Below, one piece after another: positions 2,434-61,259 of a DNA stretch of 64,000 nt. Where the stretch lies: contig JBMNNJ010000001.1 of assembly GCA_050953885.1 (NCBI GenBank), forward strand, positions 207,437 through 271,436, read 5' to 3'. The notes under the pieces were generated by a model. That model searched no databases, was not told the DNA's origin, and was given only the letters and a program-made list of their open reading frames with translations. The translations under genes and the position numbers were made by a program. Source of the stretch: Patescibacteria group bacterium. GTDB taxonomy: Bacteria; Patescibacteriota; Microgenomatia; 0-14-0-10-38-17. Each line of letters begins with the position of its first letter. Position 1 is the first letter of the stretch.

Positions 2434-3363
2434 ATGATAAAAAATAAAGAAAAAATTACCGTCAAACTTAAAAAAGCCTTAGGAGTAGAAAAAGTAAAAG
2501 AAAACGTTCTTTTGGCTCCCTTGACTACCTTTGGCATTGGCGGACCAGCTTTTTGGTTTATCACCGCCGGGAACAAAAAAGAAATCCTTGAAGCAATAAA
2601 AGCAAGCCGCGAGCTTAAAATTCCTTATTTTATCCTGGGAGGAGGATCAAATATTTTAATCGCCGATCAAGGATTTCCCGGTTTGGTAATTAGGATTAAG
2701 AATGAAGGCTTAACCATTAAGGGAACAAAAATTGCCGTTGAGGCGGGATTACCGCTGGCAAAATTAGTAGAAATTGCCCAAAAAAACTTACTTAGCGGCC
2801 TTGAATGCGGTGTTGGCATTCCAGGCACCGTCGGCGGAGCTGTTTGCGGTAATGCTGGCACCCGCGAAGAATGGATTGGACAAAAAGTCGCCAAGGTGAG
2901 TATAATAGACAAGAAAAATAAAATTGCTCATTTAAATAATCGTGACTGCAAATTTTCTTACCGGGAGAGTCGGTTTAAAAATAATCCCCAAGAAGTAATT
3001 TTGGAAGCTGTTTTTAACTTAAAGAAAGAAAAAAGAGAGGTTATTGAACAAAAAATTAAATCATTTTTAGAGGCGCGGGGAAACCAGCCCAAAGAAAAAA
3101 GCGCCGGCTCGGTTTTTAAAAATCCTCCCGGCGATTCAGCCGGAAGGCTAATTGATCAGGCCGGTCTTAGGGGTAAAAAAATTGGTCAAGCGCAAATTTC
3201 CAAAAAACACGCTAATTTTATTATTAACACCGGTGGCGCTAAAGCGGAGGAGGTGTTAAAACTTATAAGACTAGCCCAAAAAACAGTGAAAGAAAAATTT
3301 AATGTTAATCTGGAACTGGAAATAAAACTGGTGGGATTCAGTAATGAAACGACGAAAAAATGA
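2434..3363 (+). CDS. murB: UDP-N-acetylenolpyruvoylglucosamine reductase MurB
   Basis: FAD-binding N-terminal domain (LAPLTTFGIGGPA...), C-terminal GSVFKNPPG and AGRLIDQAGLRG motifs typical of MurB. Confidence 0.85.
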   Translation: MIKNKEKITVKLKKALGVEKVKENVLLAPLTTFGIGGPAFWFITAGNKKEILEAIKASRELKIPYFILGGGSNILIADQGFPGLVIRIKNEGLTIKGTKIAVEAGLPLAKLVEIAQKNLLSGLECGVGIPGTVGGAVCGNAGTREEWIGQKVAKVSIIDKKNKIAHLNNRDCKFSYRESRFKNNPQEVILEAVFNLKKEKREVIEQKIKSFLEARGNQPKEKSAGSVFKNPPGDSAGRLIDQAGLRGKKIGQAQISKKHANFIINTGGAKAEEVLKLIRLAQKTVKEKFNVNLELEIKLVGFSNETTKK

Positions 3364-3478
3364 TTCTGACTTTCGTCAGAATGACGTTTACGGAAGAATA
3401 ATGTTATTCGCTCATTCGTGTTAATTCGTTTTCATTCGTGTCAATTCGTGTGTCTTAACAGTTTAGTAATTTAACTCT

Positions 3479-4798
3479 ATGTCAAAATTCATCATCCGCG
3501 GCGGGAAACCATTGCAAGGGGCGGTTCGTTTAGGAGGAGCAAAAAACGTCAGTTTTAAAGTAATGATTGCCTCTCTTTTATGCGAAGGTCGTTCCCGGAT
3601 TTTGAACTTAGCCAAAATCGGCGATGTGGAAACAACGCGGAAAATAATTGAGGCTTTAGGAGCAAAAACTATCCCTTGCGGTGAACGGACCGTTTTTATT
3701 GATCCCAACGGCTTCTCTTCTTATCAAATTCCCGATCGCTTTGGCCCTTCCTCACGCGCTTCCATTCTTTTTGCTCCACCGCTTTTGAAAAAATTTGGCA
3801 AAGCCATTATTCCTTTCCCCGGCGGCGACAAAATTGGCCAGCGCCCCCTTGAACGCCATCTTTTGGGTTTTGAAAAATTAGGCGTGAGAGCAAAAAGCGC
3901 AAACAATCGCCTTTATCTTGAAGCCCCCCATGGTCTCCACGGCGCCACTTATCGCTTCGCTAAAAACACCCACACCGGCACCGAAAACTTAATCATGTTA
4001 GCCGTTTGCGCTCAAGGCGTTACTATTTTAGAAAATGCCGCCCAGGAAACAGAAATTGACGATTTAATTCTTTTCCTGAATCGCGCCGGGGGCAACATTA
4101 AAAGGCTGGCGGGAAGAAAAATCAAAATCATCGGTGTTCCCAAGCTTTCTGGCCAAACTCATTGGGTTATCCCTGATGCCAACGAAGCTGTTTCTTATGC
4201 CTGCGCCGCCTTAATAACCCAGGGAGATATTGCCATCGAAGGGGCTAAAACCAAAGACTTGATTGCTTTCCTTAAAAAAATCAGAGAAACGGGAGGCGAA
4301 TACGAAAGCAGTTCTTGGGGGATCCGATTTTGGTACGCCGGTCCTCTTCAGGCCACCAATGTGACCACCAAACCATACCCGGGCTTTAAAACCGACTGGC
4401 AACCACTTTGGACCACCTTAATGACCCAAGCCCAAGGTGTTAGCAAAGTAATTGAAACCGTTTATGAACAGCGCTTCGGTTTTGTTCCGGAGCTTGAAAA
4501 AATGGGAGGAAAATTCGCTTATTTTAATCCTAAGGTTAAAAACCCGGAAACATTTTACAACTTTAATTACGCCGAAAGCGATCCCAGGCTTTGTCATGGA
4601 CTTAAAATTTACGGTCCCGTCCCGCTTAAAGGAGCCCATCTTAAAACCGATGATCTGCGTCATGGCGCCACCTTAACCTTAGCCGCCCTTGCGGCAAAAG
4701 GGGAAACAATTATCGAAAACGCCGAAATTATCGACCGCGGCTATGAAGCGCTGGATTTAAAACTTAAAGAATTAGGAGGCAACATTAAAAGAATCTAG
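3479..4798 (+). CDS. murA: UDP-N-acetylglucosamine 1-carboxyvinyltransferase MurA
   Basis: MSKFIIRGGKPLQGAVRLGGAKN N-terminus, EPT-fold repeats, 439 aa. Confidence 0.9.
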   Translation: MSKFIIRGGKPLQGAVRLGGAKNVSFKVMIASLLCEGRSRILNLAKIGDVETTRKIIEALGAKTIPCGERTVFIDPNGFSSYQIPDRFGPSSRASILFAPPLLKKFGKAIIPFPGGDKIGQRPLERHLLGFEKLGVRAKSANNRLYLEAPHGLHGATYRFAKNTHTGTENLIMLAVCAQGVTILENAAQETEIDDLILFLNRAGGNIKRLAGRKIKIIGVPKLSGQTHWVIPDANEAVSYACAALITQGDIAIEGAKTKDLIAFLKKIRETGGEYESSSWGIRFWYAGPLQATNVTTKPYPGFKTDWQPLWTTLMTQAQGVSKVIETVYEQRFGFVPELEKMGGKFAYFNPKVKNPETFYNFNYAESDPRLCHGLKIYGPVPLKGAHLKTDDLRHGATLTLAALAAKGETIIENAEIIDRGYEALDLKLKELGGNIKRI

Positions 4799-4804
4799 TT
4801 TTTC

Positions 4805-6061
4805 ATGATTGGCGTTTTTAAAAATCTCTTCCATTGCCTTCAGCGTCTCGCCGCTAAAATATGGCGCGCTTTTTTTCCCAGTTTAATCGTTATTGGCGTT
4901 ACCGGCAGTTACGGCAAAACAAGCACCGTCCAGGCGATTAAGTTTGCCTTAGGAAAAAAATTTTCCCCTCTCACCACCGATATTAATTTGGATACGGTTT
5001 TTAATCTTCCCCTAACTCTTCTTAAAATTCGCCCCAAAAATAAAGCCCTAATTTTAGAATATGGCGTTGATCACCGGGGAGAAATGGAAGCTCACCTGCG
5101 CCTAATTCGACCCCAAATTGGCGTTTTAACCGGCATCAGTCCGGTTCATGCCGAAAAGGAATTGCTTGGCTCGCTTTCGGGGATCATTGAAGAAAAAGGA
5201 AAGCTTTTGGAAGCTCTTCCCAAAACCGGCTGGGCCGTTTTAAATTTTGCCAATCCCCATGTGCGTCAAATGGCTAAAAAAACAGAAGCAAAAATCGTCA
5301 GCTATGGCCAAAAAGGCGCCGATTTTTGGCTTAAAGATGCCAAAGTGAAACTTGGAGGAACTTCTTTCTTGGTTGGCCTACGACAAGGGGGAAAAGAAAA
5401 AGAGGTGAGAGTTAAAACCAAACTAATTGGTCGCCACTTTAGCGAGGAGATTATGGCCGCTTTGGCGGTAGCAAAAATTTTAGGCATAAAGGAAGAAAAA
5501 GCGGCGCGAAACTTGGAAAAACTAACAACCCTGCCGGGCAGAATGAGCTTGGAGAAAGGGCCTGAAGACACTCTTCTTCTTAATGATTCGTTACGAGCAA
5601 ATCCCGCTTCAACGCTCGCCGGTCTTAAAACCTTGGCTGAAATTCCCTACCGGGGCAGGAAAATTGCTGTTCTGGGGGAAATGGGAGAATTAGGGCAATA
5701 TCAAGAAAAAGAGCACCGACTGATTGGTCAAAAGTTGGCAAGTCTTGATATTGATTTTTTCATCGGGATAGGGGGCCTAACTCGCCTTGTCTGGGGAGAG
5801 GCAATCAAAAATGGCTTCCCTCAAAAAAAAGCTTTTTGGGCTAAAGACGTGGTTGAGGCCGCCCAAATTTTGGAAAAACTACTCAAAAAAGGAGACCTTT
5901 GGTATCTTAAGGGCTCACGCCTGCGCCACTTGGAACGAATTTTACTGCTTTTAAATCACGAAAGAGTTGATTGCCGATTAATTTCCTGTCATAATTATGA
6001 TCACTGTCGGGAATGCCCGAGACTAAAGCACACAGGATTAAACAGGATGTTTACAGGATAA
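4805..6061 (+). CDS. murF: UDP-MurNAc-pentapeptide synthetase MurF, with an unusual Cys-rich C-terminal tail
   Basis: VIGVTGSYGKTST P-loop and Mur-ligase middle and C-terminal domains. The last about 30 aa carry C-x4-C-x5-C-x2-C, and the ORF runs into an intergenic hairpin repeat. Confidence 0.8.
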   Translation: MIGVFKNLFHCLQRLAAKIWRAFFPSLIVIGVTGSYGKTSTVQAIKFALGKKFSPLTTDINLDTVFNLPLTLLKIRPKNKALILEYGVDHRGEMEAHLRLIRPQIGVLTGISPVHAEKELLGSLSGIIEEKGKLLEALPKTGWAVLNFANPHVRQMAKKTEAKIVSYGQKGADFWLKDAKVKLGGTSFLVGLRQGGKEKEVRVKTKLIGRHFSEEIMAALAVAKILGIKEEKAARNLEKLTTLPGRMSLEKGPEDTLLLNDSLRANPASTLAGLKTLAEIPYRGRKIAVLGEMGELGQYQEKEHRLIGQKLASLDIDFFIGIGGLTRLVWGEAIKNGFPQKKAFWAKDVVEAAQILEKLLKKGDLWYLKGSRLRHLERILLLLNHERVDCRLISCHNYDHCRECPRLKHTGLNRMFTG

Positions 6062-9620: not shown

Positions 9621-10000
9621 CGCGAATGAGAAACGAATGGACACGAATGAGCGAATAACATTATTCTGCTGTAAGCGTCATCCTGATGAAAATCAGGATC
9701 GGTTTTAAAGCTTAACGCTTGAAACGCTTGAGGCTTGAATCGCTTGAATCGTTTAATGTTTTTACGTTTCAAACGTCTCATACATTTCAAGCATTTCACG
9801 CATGATTCTGAATCAAGTTCAGAATGACGCTAATCGTGGATGTCATCCTGACGAATCCACCAGCCGACGGATTAAAGTTAAAAGTTTTTTTTGTTCTACT
9901 TTTGAATTTTAACTTGTAATTTTGACTTTTAACTTTTGACTTTTAACTTTTTCTGTCCGCCCGCTGGCGGATGGCGCTTGTTTATTGCTTTTTACCAGTT
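9612..10000. repeat. composite repeat array (CGAAT-periodic unit overlapping the ftsW stop, hairpins, inverted family D unit, AAAGT tract, CCGCCCGCTGGCGG palindrome)
   Basis: The family D copy here is the reverse complement of those at 43314 and 45872. Confidence 0.8.
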
Positions 10001-34471: not shown

Positions 34472-34535
34472 GGCGGCCTTTGGCGCAAAAATCCCGAGGT
34501 TTGAAGCTATTTAACTCCGGGGGTTTGAAGCTACT
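34472..34535. repeat. family C unit CCTTTGGCGCAAAAATCCCGAGGTTTGAAGCTATTTAACTCCGGGGGTTTGAAGCTA
   Basis: Further copies at 36246-36275, 36717-36749, 36866-36897, 36947-37006, 37718-37812, 38495-38545, 39345-39455, 42690-42740, 43262-43310, 50825-50890, 58200-58250, 59051-59096, 59888-59990, in both orientations. Confidence 0.8.
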
Positions 34536-36622: not shown

Positions 36623-37049
36623 TTTTAGTTTTCCCGGAAGAATTTAATTGCTCAAAGGTTTACAATATCTTACCTAAAAAATTGAAATAAGGCAATTTTT
36701 AACCTGTCATTGTGAAGCTAATCAACGCCGGGGGTTAAATAGCTTCATCTGAAGAACGCAGATCCTGACTTTCGTCAGGATGACAGCTACGGGGATGATT
36801 CCCGCCAGGCGGATTCGTCAGAGCTTGTCCTGAATTTAATTCAGGAATGACAGCTACGATTAGTGTGCCTATTTAAATCCGGGGGTTTGAAGCTATCAAG
36901 GAAAGCGCTTTTACTGCGAATAATTAATAATAGTTAATATTATCTGCCTTTGGCGCAAAAATCCCGAGGTTCGAAGCTATTTAACTCCGGGGGTTTGAAG
37001 CTATTTATTCAAATTATTAGGAGCATAACCCCTATGTTAAACTAAATTT

Positions 37050-37718
37050 ATGAAAAAGTTCTTTCTGCCTTTTCTTGGCCTCATCGCTCTTTTTCTAGGT
37101 CTTAATAACCTTAATCTTCGCCAGGAAATTCAAAAATTAACCGCCCAAAACAAAGTTATCGAAGTTATTGACGGCGATTCTCTAACCTTAGCCTCCAAAC
37201 AAAGAGTTCGCCTGGCCAATCTTGATGCTCCCGAATTGGAGTTTTGCGGCGGCATTGAAGCGAAGAATAAACTTGAATCCCTCACTCTAAATAAGACTGT
37301 CCGCTTGGAAATAATCGGCCACGACAACCTGAACCGCTCGATTTCTTTAGTTTATGTTGACAATACTCTGGTTAACGAAATCGTTCTCAAAGAGGGCTGG
37401 GCTCGCTATGACGGCTCGCCTTCGCCGGAAAAAGAAAAATTAAAACAAGCTTATGATTATGCCTTTGAAAACCGGCTAGGGATTTTCAGCCCCTTGTGTT
37501 TTTCCGAAGAGCCACCCAGCCCCAAATGCCTAATTAAAGGCAATGTCGACCGCCATTATGGCCAAAAAACCTATCATTTCCCCGGTTGTAGTGGTTATCC
37601 CCAAGTAATGGTAGAAAAAGACTTAGGCGAAGATTGGTTTTGTTCAGAAAAAGAAGCTGAAAAAGCTGGCTTTACCAAATCCAAAAATTGCTATGGTAAA
37701 ATATACGTTCCTATTTAA
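37050..37718 (+). CDS. secreted thermonuclease (staphylococcal-nuclease/SNase-like) with a Cys-containing C-terminal module
   Basis: Signal peptide. SNase active-site region RLANLDAPE, OB-fold. C-terminal KGNV...YHFPGC...WFCSEKEAEKAGF module. Confidence 0.8.
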   Translation: MKKFFLPFLGLIALFLGLNNLNLRQEIQKLTAQNKVIEVIDGDSLTLASKQRVRLANLDAPELEFCGGIEAKNKLESLTLNKTVRLEIIGHDNLNRSISLVYVDNTLVNEIVLKEGWARYDGSPSPEKEKLKQAYDYAFENRLGIFSPLCFSEEPPSPKCLIKGNVDRHYGQKTYHFPGCSGYPQVMVEKDLGEDWFCSEKEAEKAGFTKSKNCYGKIYVPI

Positions 37719-37951
37719 CCCCCGGAGTTAAATAGCTTCAAACCTCGGGAAAAATATATAATTTTGAACTTACCTCTCCGGCGCGAGCGCCAAAACTACT
37801 GGGCAGGTAGACAAAAATTTAAAACTCTGTTAAAATAGAGAAAACCGAAGAAAAACCAAATATTTGTTTGAAAATTAAAGCTGATGGTAGCATAAAAAGG
37901 CTAAGAGGGATTTCTGGCTTGCTAAAAAATTTTTAATCATCCTTATTACTC

Positions 37952-43313: not shown

Positions 43314-44585
43314 TGCGTGAAATGCTTGAAATGCATGAGACGTTTGAAACGTAAAAACATTAAACGGTTCAGGCGATTCAAGCCTCAAGCTTTGAAGCAT
43401 CAAGTCTTAAGGCAGATCCTGATTTTCATCAGGATGACAACTACCTTGATTCAGAATCAGTTAGCTAAAAGTTAAAATTCAAAATTTAAAAGTCAAAAGT
43501 ACAAGTCAAAATTCAAAAGTAGAGCAAAAAACTTTTAACTTTTAACTTGTCCGCCGGCAGGCGGATTCGTTAAAATGACGGCCACGATTAGCGTCATTCT
43601 GAACTTGATTCAGAATCGTTATTATTGTCAGAAAACACAGATCCTGACTTTCGTCAGAGCCTGTCCTGAATTTAATTCAGGAATGACAGTTACCTTGATT
43701 CAGAGTCGTTATTAATGTCAGAAAACGCAGATCCTGACTTTCGTCAGGATGACGGTTGCGATTAGCGTCATTCTGAACTTGATTCAGAATCTGTGTTATT
43801 GTCAAAAAACGCAGATCCTGACTTTCGTCAGGATGACGGTTACAGGTTCTGACTTTCGTCAGAATGACGGTTACGGGACTACAGGAATAACCCTGCCCAC
43901 CAGCCGACGGACAAGTTAAAACTCAAAACTCAAATGTCAAATCTCAAAACTACATGTTAAAACTTAAAACTACATGGTAAATGTTAAAACTTTTTAAAGC
44001 TTAATTCGTCAGAATGATGACAGCCGTGCCGTCATTCCGGACTTGATCCGGAATCGGTGTTAATGCCTAAAGAACGCAGATCCTGACTTTCGTCAGGATG
44101 ACGGTTATCTGAAGAACGCAGATCCTGACTTTCGTCAGGATGACGGCCACGATTAGCGTCATTCCGGACTTGATCCGGAATCGGTGTTATTGTCAGAAAA
44201 CGGTAGATCCTGACTTTCGTCAGGATGACGGCTACGGGGATGATTCCCGCCAAGCGGATTCGTCAGGATGACGACAGTCGTGCCGTCATTCCGGACTTGA
44301 TCCGGAATCGGTGTTAATATCTGAAGAACGCAGATCCTGACTTTCGTCAGGATGACAGCTATGGGGATGATTCCCGCCAGGCGGATTCGTCAGAATGACG
44401 GCCACGATTAGCGTCATTCTGAACTTGATTCAGAATCAGTTAGATCCTGACTTTCGTCAGGATGACGCTTTCGTCAGAGCCTGTCCTGAATTTAATTCAG
44501 GAATGACGGCCACGGCAGGATAATTTTATTCGCTCATTCGTGTTGATTCGTTTCCCATTCGCGTTGCTTCGTGTCTTTGGTCCAA
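43314..44585. repeat. about 1.25-kb BIME/REP-like composite array: one family D 100-bp unit, CAAAA/AAAGT low-complexity tract, CCGCCAGCTGGCGG-type palindromes, more than 20 short hairpins in repeating units of about 95 bp, ending in a CGAAT-periodic unit
   Basis: Three hairpin types (ATCCTGAC-TTTC-GTCAGGAT, ATTCTGAA-CTTGA-TTCAGAAT, TCCTGAATT-TAA-TTCAGGA) each followed by ATGACGG. They recur with conserved linkers such as GCGATTAGCGTC and GTTATTGTCAGAAAACGCA. No unique spacers. Confidence 0.85.
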
Positions 44586-45734: not shown

Positions 45735-46310
45735 TGATTTATGCGAATTGAGACGAACGAAAAACGAATTAACACGAAAAATAAACTCAAATCTCAAATC
45801 TCAAAACGCAAAACTACATGGTAAATGTTAAAACTTTTTAAAGCTTAATTCGCCAGCGGGCGGATAAAATCATGCGTGAAATGCTTGAAATGCAGGAGAC
45901 GTTTGAAACGTAAAAACATTAAACGGCTCAGACAATCAAGCCTCAAGCGTTTCAAGCATCAAGCTTTAAGACAGATCCTGACTTTCGTCAGGATGACGGT
46001 TACGGGGATGATTCCCGCCAGGTGGATTCGTCAGAATGATGACAGCCGTGCCGTCATTCCGGACTTGATCCAGAATCAGTGTTATTGTCAGAAAACGCAG
46101 ATCCTGACTTTCGTCAGGATGACAGCTACCTTGATTCAGAATCGTTATTAATACCTAAAGAACGCAGATTCTGACTTTCGTCAGAATGACGGTTACGGAA
46201 AGCGTCAGGATGACGACAGCCGTGCCGTCATTCCGGACTTGATCCGGAATCTGTGTTATTATCAGAAAACGCAGATCCTGACTTTCGTCAGGATGACAGC
46301 TACAGGTTTG
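45735..46310. repeat. composite repeat array (CGAAT-periodic unit, CAAAA tract, family D 100-bp unit, hairpin cluster)
   Basis: Built from the same modules as 43314-44585. The ORF-track 'proteins' here (45876-46151, 46155-46367) are repeat translations. Confidence 0.8.
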
Positions 46311-50639: not shown

Positions 50640-51180
50640 ACGCGAATGAGCGAATAACTGGCGCAAAAATAATTCAAAAGGCAAAAGTCAAAATTCAAAA
50701 TTGCAAGTCAAAAGTTAAAAGTTTTTTGCTCTACTTTTGAACTTTAACTTGTACTTTTGACTTTTGAATTTTGACTTTTAACTTTTAGTTATTCGATTCT
50801 CTCCGCTACGCTGGCAGACAGAATCATATTTTTCCCGGGGTTTGAAGCTAATCAACTCCGGGGGTTAAATAGCTTCAAACCTTGGGATTTTTGAATTTAA
50901 TTCAGGAATGACGGTTGCGATTAGCGTCATTCTGAACTTGATTCAGAATCGTTATTGTTATTAATGTCTAAAGACACAGATCCTGACTTTCGTCAGGATG
51001 ACGGACGGGGCGGTTACAGGTTCTGACTTTCGTCAGGTGACGGCCACGATCAGCGTCATTCTGAACTTGATTCAGAATCGTTATTGTTATTAATGTCAGA
51101 AAACGCAGATCCTGACTTTCGTCAGGATGACAGTTACGGAACTACAGGAATAATCCTGTCCGCCAGTTGGCGGATGGCGT
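50620..51180. repeat. composite repeat array (CGAAT unit overlapping the gatB 3' end, 130-bp AAAGT/CAAAA inverted-repeat tract, family C unit, hairpin cluster)
   Basis: Same modules as the other arrays. 50670-50790 is itself a near-palindrome. Confidence 0.8.
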
Positions 51181-54200: not shown

Positions 54201-54768
54201 AGCCCAAAAATTTGACCAGAAAATTGCCGATGTTTTAGGGCTGCCGGCGGGAAGCCGGGCCAAAATTTTAGGGGTTATTGATCAGGCAAGAACGGTTTTT
54301 ACCCGCAACGGCAATCACGAAATGGCTTTTTTAAAAATTGTTGATGAAACCGGCCAAATTGAGGCGGTGGTTTTCCCCAAAATTTTTGCCGAAACGCGCG
54401 AAAAACTGGTTGCCGGTCAGGCGGTGGCTTTGGTCGGAAAGCTGGATGAACGCGAGGAAGAAAAGTCCTTTCTGGTTGATAAAGTCTACTCTCTTGATGA
54501 GGCAAAGAAAAATTTTCTCAACGGCGAGGAAGACTATGATTTTACCATTATTATCCCCGAGAAAACCCGCCCTCAAGAACTGATGTCCTTAAACAAACTT
54601 CTTAAAACTCATCCGGGAGAAAAAAAGGGGCTTTTAATTTTTCAACAAAAAAATGGGGAAAAGTCTTTAGCCCTTAACTTTGGGGTTGACTTCACTTCCA
54701 CTTTAGAGGGAAAAATTCAAGAATTGTTAAATACCAATTCCTCTGCTATAATAAACGCCAATGACTAA
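51268..54768 (+). CDS. dnaE: DNA polymerase III alpha subunit DnaE
   Basis: PHP domain [15 protein letters not shown], polymerase core, OB domain, 1166 aa. Confidence 0.95.
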
Positions 54769-55099
54769 AACCAAAAAAGTGGAAATTCCAGAAAAAAGCG
54801 AAGAAAAAGTAGAAAGGGAAGAACCAAGGGTAGGGGAGACAGTTCGAGTTTACTTTAAGATACGGGAAAAGGGCGATAAAACGCGGGAAACCTTCTTTGA
54901 AGGCGATTTAATCGCCAAAAAGGGGCAGGGGAATGGGAAAACAATCACGGTGCGGCGCATCGGTAGCAACAAAATTGCCATCGAAAGAATTTTTCCTCTT
55001 TACTCGCCTTTAATCACTAAAATCGAAACAAAAAGCAAGCCTAAAAAAAGGACACGACGGGCCAAGCTTTACTACCAACGCCAAGCTTATAATAAATAA
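54761..55099 (+). CDS. rplS: ribosomal protein bL19
   Basis: [11 protein letters not shown]...[10 protein letters not shown]...[11 protein letters not shown]19 signature. Confidence 0.85.
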
Positions 55100-55171
55100 G
55101 CAGCAAAGGACATACTTAATGCCATCCTGGACTTGATTCAGGATCTTAAAAGATGCTGAATTAAATTCAGC

Positions 55172-55552
55172 ATGACAAATAGAGTCTTGCCCCCAGATCG
55201 ACATCGGATAGGCCAGAGAGGAGAAACCTTGGCCGCTGGCTTTCTTCAAAAACAAGGTTACCGGATTTTGGAAAGAAACTTTCGCGTCAAAGGGGGAGAA
55301 ATTGACATTATTGCCCAAGAAAAAAATAGCCTGGTTTTTGTGGAAGTTAAGGCGCGGCAAGATGATTCTTTTGGCCGGCCGGAGGAGGCCATTAACCCCC
55401 AAAAAATCGCCACCATTATGAGGGTGGGCGAATATTATGCTTCCTGCCATCCCGAACTGCCCCAAGAATTACGAGTGGATGTTTTGGCCATTAACAAGGA
55501 AAACGGCCAAATTTCTTTTCGCTTATATCGCGATATTCACAAGGACTTGTAA
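55172..55552 (+). CDS. yraN: YraN/UPF0102-family endonuclease
   Basis: GQRGETLAAGFLQKQGYRILERNFR...GEIDIIAQE...VFVEVKAR motif. Confidence 0.8.
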   Translation: MTNRVLPPDRHRIGQRGETLAAGFLQKQGYRILERNFRVKGGEIDIIAQEKNSLVFVEVKARQDDSFGRPEEAINPQKIATIMRVGEYYASCHPELPQELRVDVLAINKENGQISFRLYRDIHKDL

Positions 55553-55659
55553 GCTAAATCTCAAAACGCAAATGGCAAAACTACATGGTAAATCTAAAAA
55601 CTTTTTTAAAATTTGTTTTTCAGATTTGAGTTTTAAGTTGTAGATTTGAGATTTGAGTT

Positions 55660-56892
55660 TTGAGATTTAAATTTTTTTTATTTTTTATGCCCTATCGTCC
55701 TCCCGAGAAAATTTTAGAAAAATACGCCCAGGTTTTGGTTAACTTTGCCCTAAATAATGGTCAAGGGATAAAAAAGGGGGAGGTGGTTTTTCTCCAAGTT
55801 TCCGAAGCGGCTAAACCACTGCTTATTCATTTAAGACGCCAAGCGCTTTTGGCCGGCGCTTACCCGATTATTCAATATTTGCCCGAAGGGCTGGAGCGTG
55901 AATTTTACGAATTGGCTAAAAAAGACCAGCTTATTTTTTTCCCCAAAAAATATCTTAAGGGGATAGTGGAACAAGCCGACCATTTCATCAGCGTTTTATC
56001 GGAAACCAATAAATACGAGCTTGAAGGAATTGCGCCCCAAAAAATTCTCCAGCGAAGCCGGGCTTTTGCTCCCTATAAACGCTGGCGGGAGGAAAAAGAA
56101 GGCCGGGGAAAACTCTCCTGGACGCTCGCTCTTTACGCCACGCCGGCAGAAGCCAAGGAAGCCGGCCTTACCTTAAAAGAATATTGGCAGCAAATTATCC
56201 GCGCTTGTTTCCTAGACTTTCCCGACCCGGTCAAAAAGTGGCGGGAAGTTTTTGCCCAAATTGAGCAAACCAAAAATCGCCTTAACCAACTGGCAATTGA
56301 AGAAATTGAAGTTAAGGCCAAAGATACTAATTTGACCATCGGTATTGGCGCCAATCGCCAATGGAGAGGCGGCTCGGGCACCAATATCCCCAGCTTTGAA
56401 ATTTTCACCGCCCCCAACTGTCGGCTGATTAACGGTAAGGTTTATTTTAACCAGCCGCTTTATGTTTTTGGCCAGCTTATTAAAGACATTTATTTGGAAT
56501 TTAAAAACGGCCGGGTGGTTTTGGCCCAAGCCCAAAGAGGCCAAAAGGCGCTTGAAGAAATTATTAAAACCCCGGGCGCCAATAGAGTAGGGGAGTTTTC
56601 CTTAACCGACGGCCGCCTTTCGCGCATTACCCATTTCATGGCGGAAACACTTTATGATGAGAATCGGGGCGGCCGAAACGGTAATTTTCATCTTGCTCTG
56701 GGCTCGGCTTATCAGGAATGCTATCAGGGGAGCAACAAGGAAAAATTAAAAGCAAAAGATTGGCAAAAGTTAGGCTTTAACCGCTCGCCTTTACATCTTG
56801 ATTTTGTTTCCACCCAAAACCGCGTCGTTACCGCCTGCCTTAAAAACGGCCGGAAGAAAATTATTTACCAAAACGGCCAGTTTAAAAAATGA
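55660..56892 (+). CDS. M29-family (AmpS/PepS-like) aminopeptidase
   Basis: N-terminal ILEKYAQVLVNFALN..., about 410 aa, metal-binding H/E/D pattern typical of M29. Confidence 0.65.
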   Translation: MRFKFFLFFMPYRPPEKILEKYAQVLVNFALNNGQGIKKGEVVFLQVSEAAKPLLIHLRRQALLAGAYPIIQYLPEGLEREFYELAKKDQLIFFPKKYLKGIVEQADHFISVLSETNKYELEGIAPQKILQRSRAFAPYKRWREEKEGRGKLSWTLALYATPAEAKEAGLTLKEYWQQIIRACFLDFPDPVKKWREVFAQIEQTKNRLNQLAIEEIEVKAKDTNLTIGIGANRQWRGGSGTNIPSFEIFTAPNCRLINGKVYFNQPLYVFGQLIKDIYLEFKNGRVVLAQAQRGQKALEEIIKTPGANRVGEFSLTDGRLSRITHFMAETLYDENRGGRNGNFHLALGSAYQECYQGSNKEKLKAKDWQKLGFNRSPLHLDFVSTQNRVVTACLKNGRKKIIYQNGQFKK

Positions 56893-58190
56893 ACACCAAG
56901 CAAACCTTAGTTATTTTTGGTGCTAGCGGCGCCCTATCTCGGGAAAAGCTTTTTCCGGCTCTTTTAAGGTTGAACCAAGAAGGGGAAAGTTTCTCCCAAA
57001 TCATTGGTTTTGCCCGCACCCCCCTAACCACCAGAACTTTTATTAAAAGTCTAAAAAGCGCTTATTGTGGCAGGGAAGAAAAAAATCAGTTTTGGCAAAA
57101 AGTCTCTTATTTAAGCGGTTCGTACTCGCCCGAGGGAATTTCAAAACTTAAACCTTTTCTTGCCAAAAAGCCTGTTCTTTATTATTTTGCCCTGCCTGTT
57201 TCCCCCGATTTTATCATTCCCCTTATCAGCGGCTTAAAAAAAGAGGGTTTGCTTAAAGATAAGGACAAATTAATTTTAGAAAAACCGGTGGGCAAGAATC
57301 TTAAAGAGGCGCAGGAAATTATTAAATTCTTAAAAGCAACTGTTTGCTTAAAAAATGTTTACTTTATTGATCATTATCTTGGCAAAACCATGGTTCGCAA
57401 TATTATCGCTCTCCGTTTTGCCAACCCTATTTTTAAAAGTCTTTGGAACAACCAATTTTTGGAAAAAATTAACATTGATATTTTGGAAAAAGAAGGCATT
57501 GGCCGGCGGGGGCAATATTATGACCAAAGCGGCGCCATTCGCGATATTGTCCAAAACCACGGCCTGCAGCTTTTAAGCCTCATTGGTATGGACGAGCCCA
57601 GAAGCCTTGAGGAGCAGGAATTTTTTAAAAAACGCCGGGAGGTTTTACAAAAAGTTCGCCTCTTTGGGGGGAAATTTGCCGGCAATGTTAAAATTGGCCA
57701 ATACCAAGGTTATCAGAAAGAACCATATGTTGCCCCAAATTCTCTTACCGAAACCTACGCTTGCCTAAATTTGGAAATTAATTCCCCCAAAATGGCTGGC
57801 ATTCCCATCAAAATTACCACCGGAAAAAAATTGGCCCGAAAAAAAACGGTGATAGAAATTTATTTTAAAAAAGATTTTACCTGTTCTTGGCAAGGACAAT
57901 GCAATCGTCTTCTTTCCAATCGCCTGACGATTGATATTGCCTCACCGGCGATTTCCCTACAGCTTAACACCCGCTTTAAAAACAACCAGGCAATTCCCTC
58001 TCCAGAGGAGTTAAAAATAAAAATCGGTAATGATCAAGAAGATCCCTATCAGCAGGTTTTAAGCGATATTTTGGCAAACAGCCAATTTTCCTTTCCCCAA
58101 GCGGAGGATATTCTTTCCTCATGGCGTTTTATTGACCCTCTTCTTGCCAAAATCAATTCCCAAAGAAAGAGGATTTTAAAAATTTACTAA
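56889..58190 (+). CDS. zwf: glucose-6-phosphate 1-dehydrogenase
   Basis: N-terminal VIFGASGALSREKLFPAL Rossmann motif and IDHYLGK catalytic signature (RIDHYLGKE). Confidence 0.8.
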   Translation: MNTKQTLVIFGASGALSREKLFPALLRLNQEGESFSQIIGFARTPLTTRTFIKSLKSAYCGREEKNQFWQKVSYLSGSYSPEGISKLKPFLAKKPVLYYFALPVSPDFIIPLISGLKKEGLLKDKDKLILEKPVGKNLKEAQEIIKFLKATVCLKNVYFIDHYLGKTMVRNIIALRFANPIFKSLWNNQFLEKINIDILEKEGIGRRGQYYDQSGAIRDIVQNHGLQLLSLIGMDEPRSLEEQEFFKKRREVLQKVRLFGGKFAGNVKIGQYQGYQKEPYVAPNSLTETYACLNLEINSPKMAGIPIKITTGKKLARKKTVIEIYFKKDFTCSWQGQCNRLLSNRLTIDIASPAISLQLNTRFKNNQAIPSPEELKIKIGNDQEDPYQQVLSDILANSQFSFPQAEDILSSWRFIDPLLAKINSQRKRILKIY

Positions 58191-58294
58191 ACCAAATCGG
58201 CCCTTTTCCCGAGATTATAAGCTAATTAACCCCCAAGTTGATTAGCATATTTTGGCTTCCTCGTAGTTTTTCTAAGTGATTGCGAAAAATAAAT

Positions 58295-58380
58295 GCGGCT
58301 TACTGCTCGTAGTTCTTCGAAGCGTTAGCGAAGAAGAACGGAGTGTGGTTTACTGCTCGTAGTTCTTCGAAGAACGGAGT
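58295..58380. repeat. direct repeat of TTACTGCTCGTAGTTCTTCGAAG (2 copies about 60 bp apart)
   Basis: Read directly. Lies just upstream of the tandem tRNA-fragment units. Confidence 0.7.
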
Positions 58381-58382
58381 GC

Positions 58383-58660
58383 AGTAGCTCCAATGGGAAT
58401 CGAAGACGCGCCGATTATCATCATTTAGCCCGAAAATTCCCATCTCAGAATCACGATTCACCGGCGGAAGCCCTATTATTAGAGGTATTTGATGGGTTCG
58501 ATAAACCCATTGTCGCTACTTAGTAGCTCCAATGGGAATCGAAGACGCGCCGATTATCATCATTTAGCCCGAAAATTCCCATCTCAGAATCACGATTCAC
58601 CGGCGGAAGCCCTATTATTAGAGGTATTTGATGGGTTCGATAAACCCATTGTCGCTACTT
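58383..58660. repeat. two tandem 139-bp units, each starting with the 22-nt 3' end of tRNA-Glu (minus strand) followed by 117 bp of unrelated sequence
   Basis: Units 58383-58521 and 58522-58660 are essentially identical. The third occurrence of AGTAGCTCCAATGGGAATCGAA starts the intact tRNA. Confidence 0.85.
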
Positions 58661-58662
58661 AG

Positions 58663-58734
58663 TAGCTCCAATGGGAATCGAACCCATGTTACCACCTTGA
58701 AAGGGTGGTGTCCTAACCGTTAGACGATGGAGCC
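58663..58734 (-). tRNA. tRNA-Glu (anticodon UUC)
   Basis: Acceptor GGCTCCA/TGGAGCT (G1-U72), anticodon stem CCACC/GGTGG, loop CTTTCAA, T-arm TGGGTTCGATTCCCA. Confidence 0.85.
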
Positions 58735-58768
58735 AAGATAAAATGATTTTACCAAAAAAGAGAAAGAA

Positions 58769-59008
58769 ATGCCAACTTTACTATTAATAAAACCTATGGT
58801 ATTATTCATCTTTATGAATAAAGAAAAAAACCCACCAGAAGAAGGGCCTTTTTTTGGCACCACCGGCCCTTTTGGGACGGGTAAAAAATTTATGCTGGGA
58901 CTAACACCAGAAGATTTGGAAAGATTAATAGAAACTTACGGGAAAGGCGCTAAAGTGGCGGATGTCATTACCAGCGAAATTCTCAAAAAAGGTAACCGCC
59001 AAAACTAA
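58769..59008 (+). CDS. small hypothetical protein (may start at an internal Met)
   Basis: 79-aa ORF with a hydrophobic N-terminus. No motif. Weak support. Confidence 0.25.
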   Translation: MPTLLLIKPMVLFIFMNKEKNPPEEGPFFGTTGPFGTGKKFMLGLTPEDLERLIETYGKGAKVADVITSEILKKGNRQN

Positions 59009-59111
59009 ACCCTCTCGCCGCTTACCCCATTTCTCTTAAGCGCTCTAAAGAAAATCCCGAGGTTTGAAGCTATTTAACTCCGGGGGTTTGAAGCTAAAAA
59101 ATATTTCCTCC

Positions 59112-59828
59112 TCATTTCTCCCTTAAGTCGTTCCAAAAATGACGGAATTTTACTTTTGTCTTTTGCCAAGGAGTAATTTTACCACCCTCAACCGCCACAC
59201 GAAACTCGGTATAAAAACGAGATAAGTTTTTAACCAAGTATTTAAAAAGTTCGTCTTTTCCCTTCGTTTTGCCCCGGCAAATATGCTGATGGCAACCAAC
59301 GGCCACTGTAAAAGCCGGCAGGAAAAGATTAATCTCCTCCAAATCGGCAGAGGTTAAATCTCTCCCTTTCTCTCCTGATTCAAACTCCATCATTGCTCCT
59401 CTTGCCTCCAGTTTATCTTGGCGATATTCCTCGTAGCGCATTTTAATTAATTTCTCCCAATCGGCAAGATGTTTTTTCTCAATGCCAAGATTTTTAAGAT
59501 ATCCAACATGGGCTTTGGGAATTTCGTCTCGAACCATCAGCAAATAATCACGAAATTCTTCTGGCTGTCTTATGTCGGGCGCTTCTAAGGTAAGCATGAA
59601 AAGCGTCAGGGGAGCAATGATCAACTCATTGAAAATACGATCTTTTTCTAATTGTTCCCGCTTATCAAATTCCGCTAACTTTTGAAATTTTGGGTCGTTA
59701 AACACTTTCGCCACAAAACCAATCGCCCCCTGATCAAGCATCGCCGCCGTGGCTTTGGCCATTTTAGGCAAAGAATCTGCCGAAAAGTCTTCCTTTTCAA
59801 GTTGTTCAATTTCCTCTCGGGGCTCCAT
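59112..59828 (-). CDS. hypothetical protein
   Basis: Intact 238-aa ORF flanked by family C repeats. No confident motif. Confidence 0.45.
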   Translation of the reverse strand: MEPREEIEQLEKEDFSADSLPKMAKATAAMLDQGAIGFVAKVFNDPKFQKLAEFDKREQLEKDRIFNELIIAPLTLFMLTLEAPDIRQPEEFRDYLLMVRDEIPKAHVGYLKNLGIEKKHLADWEKLIKMRYEEYRQDKLEARGAMMEFESGEKGRDLTSADLEEINLFLPAFTVAVGCHQHICRGKTKGKDELFKYLVKNLSRFYTEFRVAVEGGKITPWQKTKVKFRHFWNDLREK

Positions 59829-60076
59829 TAACTTTATTTTAGCACCTCTTGTTGACAGCGTAAAATTTCAATATTTGGGCACTAAAAATCAAAAATCCCG
59901 AGGTTTGAAGGCTCGCTAACGCCGGGAGTTTGAAGCTAAAAAAATCCCGAGGTTTGAAGCTATTTAACGCCGGGAGTTGGAAGCTAATTTCCTTGCTCTT
60001 GATTGTCATCTTCCGATGTGCGAAAATAGAAAAAATCAAGAAAGGGAAGAACTCTCTTAAAAGGGGGTGAGAAAAA

Positions 60077-60340
60077 ATGGCGGATGTTAAAGTTGGTAAA
60101 ATCACTCATTATTACGATAAAATCGGCGTGGCGGTTTTGGCCGTGAACGAAGCGCCGCTTAAAACAGGAGAAACAATTAAAATTACCGACAATGAAGGCA
60201 ACGAACTTTTCACCCAAGAAGTTACCTCCATGCAGGTAGAGCATCAAAATATTCCTGAAGCTAAAGTAGGCGAAGAGGTGGGGCTTAAGGTGGAGCAAGA
60301 AGTAAAAGAAGGCGACGAGGTTTATAAAGTGACGGCTTAA
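60077..60340 (+). CDS. small EF-Tu-domain-2-like beta-barrel protein
   Basis: VGKITHYYDKIGVAVLAV...KTGETIKI... resembles the translation-factor beta-barrel domain. 87 aa. Confidence 0.4.
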   Translation: MADVKVGKITHYYDKIGVAVLAVNEAPLKTGETIKITDNEGNELFTQEVTSMQVEHQNIPEAKVGEEVGLKVEQEVKEGDEVYKVTA

Positions 60341-60350
60341 TTTTCTCTTT

Positions 60351-60752
60351 TTGAAAATGAAAGTTGAAAAAGCGGAAGATGTCCGGCTTTTGGCGGAAAA
60401 AATTATTCTTTCCCTTAACTTTTCCCATATTAAAAAAGAGCGCCTTTTTTTCTACCGCAGTTTTTCCTCCAAAACTCGCGCCTTAGCTCGTATCTGGTCT
60501 TTTCCCTCCCTTTGGCAAGAAGCCCTTAATTTGCCCTCGTACTATATTATTGAGGTGGTTAGCGAAAAGTTTGATAAACTTGATCCCGAACAACAAGCCA
60601 AGGTTTTAATTCACGAACTGCTTCACATCCCCAAAACTTTTTCCGGCGCTCTCCTGCCGCACCGCACCGGCACTTTTAAACTTAGCCAGAGAACGGTTAA
60701 TAAGATGTATCAAGAATACAAAAATAAAGAGAAAGATAAAATTGATACTTAA
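60351..60752 (+). CDS. HExxH (HELLH) putative metallopeptidase-like protein (SprT/DUF45-like)
   Basis: LIHELLHIP zinc-binding motif. Starts 10 bp after the preceding small ORF. Confidence 0.4.
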   Translation: MKMKVEKAEDVRLLAEKIILSLNFSHIKKERLFFYRSFSSKTRALARIWSFPSLWQEALNLPSYYIIEVVSEKFDKLDPEQQAKVLIHELLHIPKTFSGALLPHRTGTFKLSQRTVNKMYQEYKNKEKDKIDT

Positions 60753-60779: not shown

Positions 60780-61259
60780 AAAAAATCTCAAATTCCTATT
60801 TAATTCAAAATTTAAAAGTCAATCCGCCAGCTGGCGGATCAAAATTGCAAGTTAAAATTAAAAAGTAATGCAAAAAACTTTTAACTTTTGTCCGCCAGCG
60901 GGCGGATTCGTCAGAATGACAACCACGATTAGCGTCATTCTGAACTTGATTCAGAATCGTCTTAAGGAATGATTCTGACTTTCGTCAGAATGACACTTTC
61001 GTCAGGATGACAACAGCCGTGCCGTCATTCCGGACTTGATCCGGAATCGGTGTTATTGTCAGAAACGCAGATTCTGACTTTCGTCAGAATGACGGTTACG
61101 GGACGGTTACAGGAATAATTTTGTCCGCCAGCTGGCGAATTTAGTTTTGAGTTTTAACATGTAATTTTTAGTTTTGCGATTTAACATTTGAGTTTATTTA
61201 TTGTTTTTAAATTTTGATTTAGGCTTTGATATTTGATATTTGCGTTTTGATTTACCCTT
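60780..61259. repeat. composite repeat array (CCGCCAGCTGGCGG palindromes, AAAGT tract, hairpin cluster, half of the family G palindromic element)
   Basis: Same modules as the other arrays. Confidence 0.8.

Follow-up and report, generated by a model that had tools for sequence, protein, structure and literature searches.

How did the 3' end of a tRNA gene come to be repeated at a fixed spacing behind the gene itself, and does such an arrangement testify to the activity of an integrase? The question was raised by an initial annotation of a 64-kb stretch of DNA (64,000 nucleotides, hereafter the window), in which repeated tRNA-Glu 3' ends were taken as the hallmark of integrase-mediated insertion. 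The window comes from the chromosome of an uncultured bacterium of the Patescibacteria (CPR). A protein identical to its G6PD, which is encoded beside the repeats, is annotated in an NCBI metagenome-assembled genome of Patescibacteria/CPR, and candidate division WS6 is among the sources of more distant G6PD homologues.

The tRNA-Glu gene (anticodon ttc) was located by ARAGORN at 58662-58734 on the minus strand, and positions 58663-58734 scored 67.4 bits against the Rfam tRNA model RF00005. The acceptor stem is closed by a G1.U71 wobble pair and the minimum free energy (MFE) of the cloverleaf is -27.3 kcal/mol. The threefold occurrence of the 22-nt tRNA-Glu 3' end at 139-bp spacing, on which the initial annotation was built, was confirmed: the plus-strand 22-mer AGTAGCTCCAATGGGAATCGAA (in tRNA sense, TTCGATTCCCATTGGAGCTACT) was found at 58383, 58522 and 58661, its sole sites in the window with up to three mismatches allowed, for a chance expectation of 0 (100 shuffles). 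This segment, called here the core, extends from T54, the first base of the T loop, to 2 nt beyond the discriminator, and comprises the entire T loop, the T-stem 3' strand, the acceptor 3' strand, the discriminator and these 2 nt. Analysis by TRF gave a period of 139 with 2.2 copies, 100% matches and no indels across 58383-58682, and a repeat search showed 58383-58521 and 58522-58660 to be 100% identical. One unit of 139 bp is made of 117 bp, designated X, and one core. The tRNA-Glu array is the only perfect tandem repeat in the 64-kb window, and no copies of this kind were detected at the other three tRNA genes of the window. The features of the locus are listed below.

58221-58246, plus strand: terminator-like hairpin 3' of G6PD (terminator scan)
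58260-58382, no strand assigned: flank hairpin repeats, 36/50-nt period, 2.4 copies (TRF, strain comparison and fold)
58383-58404, minus strand: core copy 2, the most distal, adjoining the flank ...ACGGAGTGC (22-mer and strain comparison)
58405-58521, minus strand: X, distal copy, 117 nt (TRF and repeat search)
58492-58520, plus strand: inverted tRNA-3'-like segment of the distal X (local alignment to the tRNA)
58522-58543, minus strand: core copy 1, a displaced tRNA 3'-end fragment (exact 22-mer, no tRNA model match)
58544-58660, minus strand: X, tRNA-proximal copy, 117 nt (100% identical to 58405-58521)
58631-58659, plus strand: inverted tRNA-3'-like segment of the proximal X, ATGGGTTCGATAAACCCATTGTCGCTACT (local alignment to the tRNA)
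58661-58682, minus strand: core copy 0, the 3' end of the tRNA itself (exact 22-mer match)
58663-58734, minus strand: tRNA-Glu(UUC) gene, intact, without encoded CCA (ARAGORN and Rfam RF00005)
58746-58775, minus strand: promoter-like site, TTGGCA, 18 nt, TG-TAAAAT (consensus match only, 10/12)

The displaced cores are fragments and not tRNA genes, since they are preceded by GCGTC where the tRNA has the T-stem strand ATGGG. An Rfam scan at E <= 10 found no tRNA-like gene inside the units. The number of flank hairpin repeats at 58260-58382 differs among strains, and the hairpin that adjoins the array is predicted to pair with the last bases of the core. A coding function of the array was considered and rejected, stops being present in all tRNA-sense frames within about 20 codons; in addition, 139 is not a multiple of 3 and the substitutions among units of different strains display no single-phase periodicity.

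The 117 bp between the cores had been described as non-tRNA sequence. This description held for 88 nt but not for the remaining 29 nt (58492-58520 and 58631-58659). On the plus strand, the tRNA-proximal 29 nt of X form an inverted, slightly degenerate copy of the T arm and the acceptor 3' strand, in which 24 of 27 aligned bases match the tRNA in local alignment, with a 2-nt gap. X and the tRNA end thereby face each other tail-to-tail in a near-palindrome and, read in tRNA sense, the locus runs from the direct tRNA end to the inverted copy, the 88 nt and the direct copy, after which the order repeats. The other 88 nt showed no likeness to the tRNA in a shuffle test, nor to the rest of the window; when the remaining 84 nt were compared with the tRNA, 1943 of 2000 shuffles scored equal or better. 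The idea that X is a decayed inverted tRNA-Glu was rejected, because the similarity ends after 29 nt.

On one side of the array are found dnaE, rplS, a UPF0102 gene, an M29 peptidase gene and G6PD, the last being convergent with the tRNA. On the other side lie orf79 (small and conserved), a 238-aa ORF, a metallopeptidase gene, holA and a phosphoglucomutase gene. No Pfam match to an integrase, a recombinase or a transposase was obtained in ORFs of at least 120 aa over the whole 64-kb window, so that the earlier remark that no integrase gene is nearby holds at this larger scale. A promoter-like site with an extended -10 element, recognized by consensus match only, is present directly upstream of the tRNA-Glu 5' end. 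On the tRNA strand, no terminator-like site was detected in 58000-59100, hence none between the tRNA and the array. The hairpin at 58221-58246 is the sole one nearby; although called as the plus-strand terminator of G6PD, it is the first terminator-like feature that a read-through transcript of tRNA-Glu would meet, on the opposite strand. As the first terminator-like hairpin beyond the tRNA lies past the array, we infer that transcription starting at the tRNA-Glu promoter most likely continues through the array, which would form a 3' trailer.

In order to compare the locus among relatives, about 30 contigs (designated by L numbers) were gathered by exact-protein look-ups with G6PD, its cluster variants and orf79, and by one junction-pattern scan. 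The alleles were compared at a single junction, that between the flank ...ACGGAGTGC and the core. No unit is present in L010, L037 and L038, in which the flank meets the tRNA end directly. One unit was found in L004, L016, L031 (a 99.6-kb contig), L032, L034, L011-L015 and L028, and two units in the window and in L001/L030, a separate and structurally different assembly. L026 and L033 contain at least two units, each contig beginning within a further unit. The zero-unit alleles are exact empty sites, in which the flank ...ACGGAGTGC abuts the tRNA 3' end. Furthermore, six independent Logan contigs end at the core plus 8 nt, that is 30 nt into the first unit; this is the k-1 branch point for k = 31, at which a graph is expected to branch only when the sample contains an X-core-X junction. 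In L008, the nearest relative outside the clade (72% G6PD identity), the G6PD stop is only 11 nt from the tRNA end and no repeats occur at the G6PD-tRNA junction. From the allelic series, the Logan branch points and the repeat-free L008, it was concluded that the array is real, clade-specific and polymorphic. The distinction between one and two units in short-read assemblies is to be read with caution, as the assembler may collapse the counts, but it is robust that some alleles have no unit and others at least one, and that arrays of two or more units exist. A G6PD-based search for the locus in the GTDB genome collection gave no match, and the species and its near relatives are apparently absent there.

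These data also bear on the proposal, entertained by the initial annotation as what would undo its reading, that the units are a spuriously expanded or collapsed repeat. It is true that perfect repeats of 139 bp are longer than most k-mers used with short reads, and that many contigs break at this place. However, independent assemblies carry zero, one, two and at least two units: two units are found in two assemblies, the window and L001, which are structurally different elsewhere, and the unit-to-unit junctions are assembled in L026 and L033. The six independent Logan unitigs end at a genuine X-core-X branch point, and zero- and one-unit alleles are not interconvertible by collapse, since the 22-nt core is shorter than k. 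As X variants moreover differ between lineages, an assembly artefact is essentially excluded.

Four variants of X were observed, each of 117 nt, without indels and with 11 variable columns. Units are identical inside the window array and inside the L026 array, while the two arrays hold different variants, and lineages differ at up to 9 of the 117 positions. Between the window and L011/L028, identity is 92.3% for X, about 92% for G6PD and 90-92% for orf79, whereas other spacers are gapped and only 77-82% identical. Every detected copy of X sits at the tRNA-Glu junction. X has thus been inherited with the chromosome since the lineages split, as its divergence keeps pace with that of the flanking genes; the expansions were independent, recent and confined to lineages, units being alike within arrays and unlike between them. 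L010, whose G6PD is closer to that of the window than the G6PD of L011 is (96.7% against 92.3% identity), is nevertheless devoid of X, which was most likely lost by precise deletion between 22-bp repeats. The mosaic strains L016 and L032 show that homologous recombination is active at the locus.

A simple mechanism can be proposed on this basis. Every unit is flanked by perfect direct repeats, of 22 bp or, once two units are present, of 139 bp, between which unequal homologous recombination or replication slippage would add or remove whole units, each gain or loss restoring an intact tRNA-Glu gene. Gain and loss of whole units between direct repeats would account for the alleles with zero, one, two and at least two copies among near-identical strains, as well as for homogenization within a genome combined with divergence between lineages. 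We infer that recombination or slippage between the 22-bp or 139-bp direct repeats suffices to yield these products and that no integrase is needed. Thus, the array is probably a tandem repeat that arose locally within the 3' trailer of tRNA-Glu and is maintained by recombination; it is specific to the clade and variable in copy number, and its layout resembles that of the E. coli tyrT/RtT repeats. The tandem amplification offered as one option by the initial annotation fits this picture, as units are identical within arrays and differ between lineages (window against L026, L011 and L028).

Several points count against this best explanation. The first [core-X-core] arrangement requires a founding event, which simple slippage does not supply, and the boundary of the repeated block falls exactly at the start of the T loop, which gives it the look of an integrase att site. 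A further point comes from a sister strain. L038 contains no X unit but, in the same spacer, a 444-bp cassette with an intact gene for an 81-aa GIY-YIG protein. This cassette is bounded by perfect 33-bp repeats, made of 14 nt of flank and 19 nt of the tRNA 3' end. A piece of the tRNA 3' end borders this second, unrelated insert as well, and its T-loop breakpoint is only 3 nt away from the one seen with the X units. This parallel likewise counts against the preferred explanation, as it hints at a site-directed process rather than a random duplication. The candidate origins of the first unit are an att-type event, a break-repair rearrangement and an event linked to the GIY-YIG cassette.

Should the units be regarded, then, as a CIME-like miniature cassette, in which X and the core are what remains, att site included, of an element that had entered the tRNA-Glu gene at its T loop, and which a tyrosine integrase encoded elsewhere would insert, excise and stack in tandem? 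Integrases that target tRNA genes often use the T-loop sublocation, the att repeat starting in the anticodon or T loop and reaching the gene end, and the identity block found here, which opens with the first base of the T loop and closes 2 nt beyond the tRNA, corresponds to this classic sublocation. The precise empty sites in near-identical strains (L010, L037 and L038) also agree with such a cassette, and in this respect the hallmark invoked by the initial annotation stood: an att-like T-loop block and empty sites are indeed present. An empty site is equally expected from recombination between 22-bp repeats. The other part of the claim did not stand, no mobile-element signature being detected. 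No integrase was detected in the 64-kb window, where ORFs of at least 120 aa were covered, or in about 25 related contigs. No exact match to an X 40-mer, to the core 22-mer or to a degenerate 29-mer covering conserved X positions exists among IMG/VR viral contigs, and comparison of X with phage and plasmid collections by blastn gave only chance matches of 22-27 nt. No GTDB species genome contains the X 29-mer, and no metagenome contig matched an X 22-mer, although the latter search was insensitive because the variants present there differ within that 22-mer. In addition, the displaced cores lack dyad symmetry, with GCGTC in place of the T-stem arm ATGGG. To our knowledge, 117 bp is far below the size of any integrative element, and we know of no attP site that features an inverted 29-nt copy of the tRNA beside its core. 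The DNA between the repeats does not look foreign either, since it matches nothing in these collections and X diverges to the same extent as the flanking genes, with units identical within a strain. Tandem accretion of att-bounded elements devoid of integrase is documented (PMC3146451), but serial integration at ssrA produced tandem att-bounded islands that are all different, many of them with integration modules (PMC3146451). The att repeats of elements integrated at tRNA or tmRNA genes, with their tandem accretion (CIMEs, Dehalococcoides ssrA islands), and the array have in common a repeat of the gene 3' end starting in the T loop, copies downstream of an intact gene and empty sites; the array differs by the mere 117 bp between repeats, by the lack of an integrase or any element gene, by identical units instead of distinct islands, by the lack of homology to mobile elements and by the co-divergence of X with the chromosome. 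Such a cassette is therefore considered unlikely. Serial or repeated integration, as proposed by the initial annotation, is not supported, X being present at one junction only, co-diverging with the chromosome and forming identical units where no integrase is found; an integrase-type event is possible for the founding of the very first unit. A selfish element of the MITE or REP type, of 138 bp with imperfect terminal inverted repeats of about 23 bp and a transposase supplied in trans, appears very unlikely. The unit ends (AGTAGC..CAATGGG..TCGAA) do form inverted repeats, with 18 matches over about 23 positions, and the genome is rich in dispersed hairpin repeats; yet neither the 64-kb window nor any fetched contig holds a second X locus, one of the presumed terminal repeats is simply the neighbouring tRNA end, copied exactly, and the window encodes no transposase. 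We know of no transposase that generates a 22-bp target duplication.

The array may also be seen as a by-product of a nuclease break, in which an endonuclease directed to the T arm or 3' end of the tRNA (the product of the GIY-YIG gene that sister strains have in this spacer, or another enzyme) would have cut the gene, fold-back or template-switch repair would have created the direct-inverted-direct order, and segmental amplification would have followed. The precedent is SegB, a GIY-YIG homing enzyme of phage T4, whose recognition site extends from GGTTCRANTCC through the tRNA 3' end and whose cut falls close to this end (PMC2330249), and which drives tandem segmental amplification of the tRNA locus in T-even phages (PMC13096335). 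The SegB motif RAWTSGAAC is matched by the T loop of tRNA-Glu and not by the displaced cores. An inverted tail-to-tail copy centred just past the tRNA end is the expected trace of fold-back repair, and the intact GIY-YIG gene of L038 lies in a cassette bounded by tRNA ends, with degraded copies in L028 (truncated) and L010 (a 25-codon remnant). However, the L038 protein consists of just a catalytic domain, of the UPF0213/BH0048 type (PDB 1zg2, E = 2e-6), with no NCBIfam match, and the DNA-binding domain that homing enzymes possess is missing. No GIY-YIG homologue was found in the window. Arrays occur in strains without the gene, whereas the strain with the intact gene has no X unit; moreover, 88 nt of X lack an identifiable template. 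The likeness to SegB thus consists of tandem units anchored on a tRNA gene, a GIY-YIG gene in the spacer of sister strains and breakpoints inside the region recognized by SegB, from the T loop to the tRNA 3' end. It stops there: the locus is chromosomal and bacterial, the unit contains neither a whole tRNA nor a nuclease gene, and the GIY-YIG gene, found only in sister strains and outside the 139-bp unit, encodes a stand-alone UPF0213-type domain of 81 aa that is absent from the window. On balance, an origin by nuclease break is judged quite unlikely.

A layout of repeats in a tRNA trailer has been known since the 1970s as an oddity of the E. coli tyrT operon. In E. coli K-12 tyrT-tyrV, a unit of 178 bp is repeated 3.1 times with 95% identity, and each unit carries the 3' 19 nt of tRNA-Tyr (AATCCTTCCCCCACCACCA), starting within the T loop. 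According to the literature, RttR is a processing product released from the tyrT transcript; the MFE structure of RttR as annotated has an internal GGGGAAGGAU paired with the 3' end that derives from the tRNA. In both systems, tandem units lie 3' of a tRNA gene, each with its terminal 20 nt or so from the T loop onwards, and in the predicted folds a tRNA-derived 3' segment pairs with an internal complementary stretch. The E. coli units are located in the 3' trailer of a tRNA operon, a position that the Patescibacteria array would share. However, there is neither sequence nor covariance-model similarity between them: the RtT model RF00391, which gave four matches of 133-138 bits in the E. coli tyrTV control, had no match in 57000-60500 of the window at E <= 10, nor in L011, L026 and L028 at the gathering score. 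The units also differ in length (139 bp against 178 bp) and identity (100% against 95%), and here the complementary segment is a recognizable inverted, tail-to-tail copy of the tRNA end. Moreover, the Patescibacteria locus has no encoded CCA and no Tpr-like ORF, its copy number ranges from zero upward among strains, and the host belongs to another phylum. The tRNA-Glu array is best described by its resemblance as an analogue, and not as a member, of the RtT family. It provides a second, non-homologous case of the tRNA-trailer repeat layout, from a very distant lineage with reduced genomes. This suggests that the repeated combination of a tRNA 3' end with a complementary arm keeps emerging in evolution and may share a cause or a use. 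For the programs that search for islands and prophages, it also follows that repeated tRNA 3' ends with a precise empty site are insufficient proof of integrase activity.

Folding predictions were made for the units and for the tRNA-Glu precursor. In tRNA sense, one unit has an MFE of -48.1 kcal/mol (z = -4.0), compared with z = -1.8 on the complementary strand. Each 139-nt unit could close on itself into a rod-like hairpin, since the inverted copy of the tRNA end stands at the start of X and the direct copy closes the unit. The predicted closing helix, formed by the inverted tRNA-like arm and the direct core, is about 19-20 bp long with a tandem G.A mismatch inside, and the segment given above as ATGGGTTCGATAAACCCATTGTCGCTACT would form its 5' strand in the tRNA-sense RNA. 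Among the four X variants, four substitutions fall in paired columns and all are compatible with pairing (G-U to G-C or A-U), the other 7 of the 11 being in unpaired columns. No compensatory double change was seen among these four variants and shuffled data equalled the observed values, in a comparison that so few variants leave underpowered. The rod fold is thus compatible with the data but unproven.

In the absence of units, the precursor is predicted to adopt the cloverleaf followed by the flank hairpin. When at least one unit is present, the T arm and the acceptor 3' strand of the tRNA are predicted to pair at equilibrium with the inverted arm, in a hairpin of 47 nt with -23.9 kcal/mol (z = -6.7), and the 5' acceptor strand of the tRNA then pairs with the distal core. 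According to the same predictions, forcing the cloverleaf in the presence of the trailer costs 12-16 kcal/mol, and the cloverleaf remains the MFE structure only until 17 nt of X have been made. In vivo, the cloverleaf would have to be kinetically trapped or rapidly processed, and in the model the core of each unit can neutralize the inverted arm afterwards. A harmless or useful trailer would hardly be expected to out-compete the cloverleaf, unless kinetics govern the folding or 3' processing is fast; this prediction, too, counts against the preferred explanation.

A bolder proposal, which we regard as improbable, is that the unit is an RtT-like small RNA tuning tRNA-Glu by its copy number, or else that the locus records a SegB-like amplification by a nuclease directed to the T loop. 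In the former case, a 139-nt RNA would be cut from the tRNA-Glu precursor; its "anti-tRNA" arm may capture the T arm and acceptor 3' strand of nascent tRNA-Glu, while the terminal direct copy of the tRNA end would serve as a decoy freeing the tRNA. A copy number going from zero to at least three would then tune the maturation or the supply of tRNA-Glu. In the latter case, a T-loop-directed nuclease would amplify the flanks of a chromosomal tRNA gene in a cellular genome. The natural series of zero, one, two and three copies in near-identical strains would offer a ready test of whether such trailers affect tRNA maturation at all.

The predicted pairing of the 5' acceptor strand with the distal core also prompted another reading, in which the array would be an intervening sequence of the T loop and the distal core the true 3' half of the tRNA after splicing. 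No intron signature was found in the array, and this reading was rejected because the proximal core completes a normal tRNA-Glu gene.

Two of the retrieved loci of related strains, L016 and L032, proved to be mosaics relative to window 57591-58800. In L016, the G6PD gene is of the L011 type (92.5% identity), and from the stop codon on the sequence is 100% window-type. In L032, a window-type X (the 117-bp part of the array unit) is combined with a short flank of the L011 type. These composite sequences indicate that homologous exchange among strains is frequent at the tRNA-Glu locus.

In the locus L038 (positions 672-1148; JGI 3300009767), the spacer equivalent to window 58191-58661 contains a 444-bp cassette, which encodes a stand-alone, UPF0213/BH0048-like GIY-YIG protein of 81 aa. 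The gene is intact and oriented in the tRNA sense. The cassette ends are perfect 33-bp direct repeats. In each repeat, 14 nt derive from the flank and 19 nt from the 3' end of tRNA-Glu; the breakpoint lies within the T loop, at the C56/G57 boundary. The GIY-YIG gene is truncated in L028 (71 aa) and reduced to a 25-codon remnant in L010, and no copy of it was found in the window. The acceptor stem of tRNA-Glu itself (window 58663-58734) is closed by a G1.U71 wobble pair, a feature shared with L008 and L039, which are more distantly related.

Besides the array, further repeats were observed in the window:

58260-58382: hairpin-forming repeats, period 36/50 nt, core GTTCTTCGAAGAAC
59048-59097, 59890-59987, 34488-34533, 36958-37003, 37717-37750 and 50833-50891: dispersed family of ~48 nt, AAAATCCCGAGGTTTGAAGCTA...
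43585-44400, with related copies at 9804-9925, 46027-46297 and 60839-61098: second family, hairpin-rich

The repeats at 58260-58382 are located between the G6PD terminator and the array, and their copy number varies from ~0.5 to 3 depending on the strain. The copy adjoining the tRNA or the array is predicted to pair with the final bases of the tRNA trailer. As for the ~48-nt family, the copies at 59048-59097 and 59890-59987 bracket a minus-strand ORF (59112-59828) for a 238-aa protein of unknown function; this ORF is absent or replaced in L038, L039 and L040. The second family has units of 84/127 nt with 76-80% identity, dispersed as well as tandem, and lies in and near a low-GC region (36-44 kb) coding for a Schlafen-like helicase, a PD-(D/E)XK nuclease, RadC and a MazG-like protein.

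Upstream of G6PD, the M29 peptidase gene overlaps G6PD by 4 nt in the window; in L010 (positions 3330-5000) and in L017-L020, the two genes are separated by an insertion of ~1.7 kb with two ORFs of 136 and 141 aa, the latter containing a HELSH motif. Finally, positions 1-2080 of L001 (JGI contig Ga0617567_087) are inverted with respect to window 54252-56332, with a breakpoint around window 56332/56466, inside the gene for the M29 peptidase. The arrangement represents either a genuine inversion or a misassembly.
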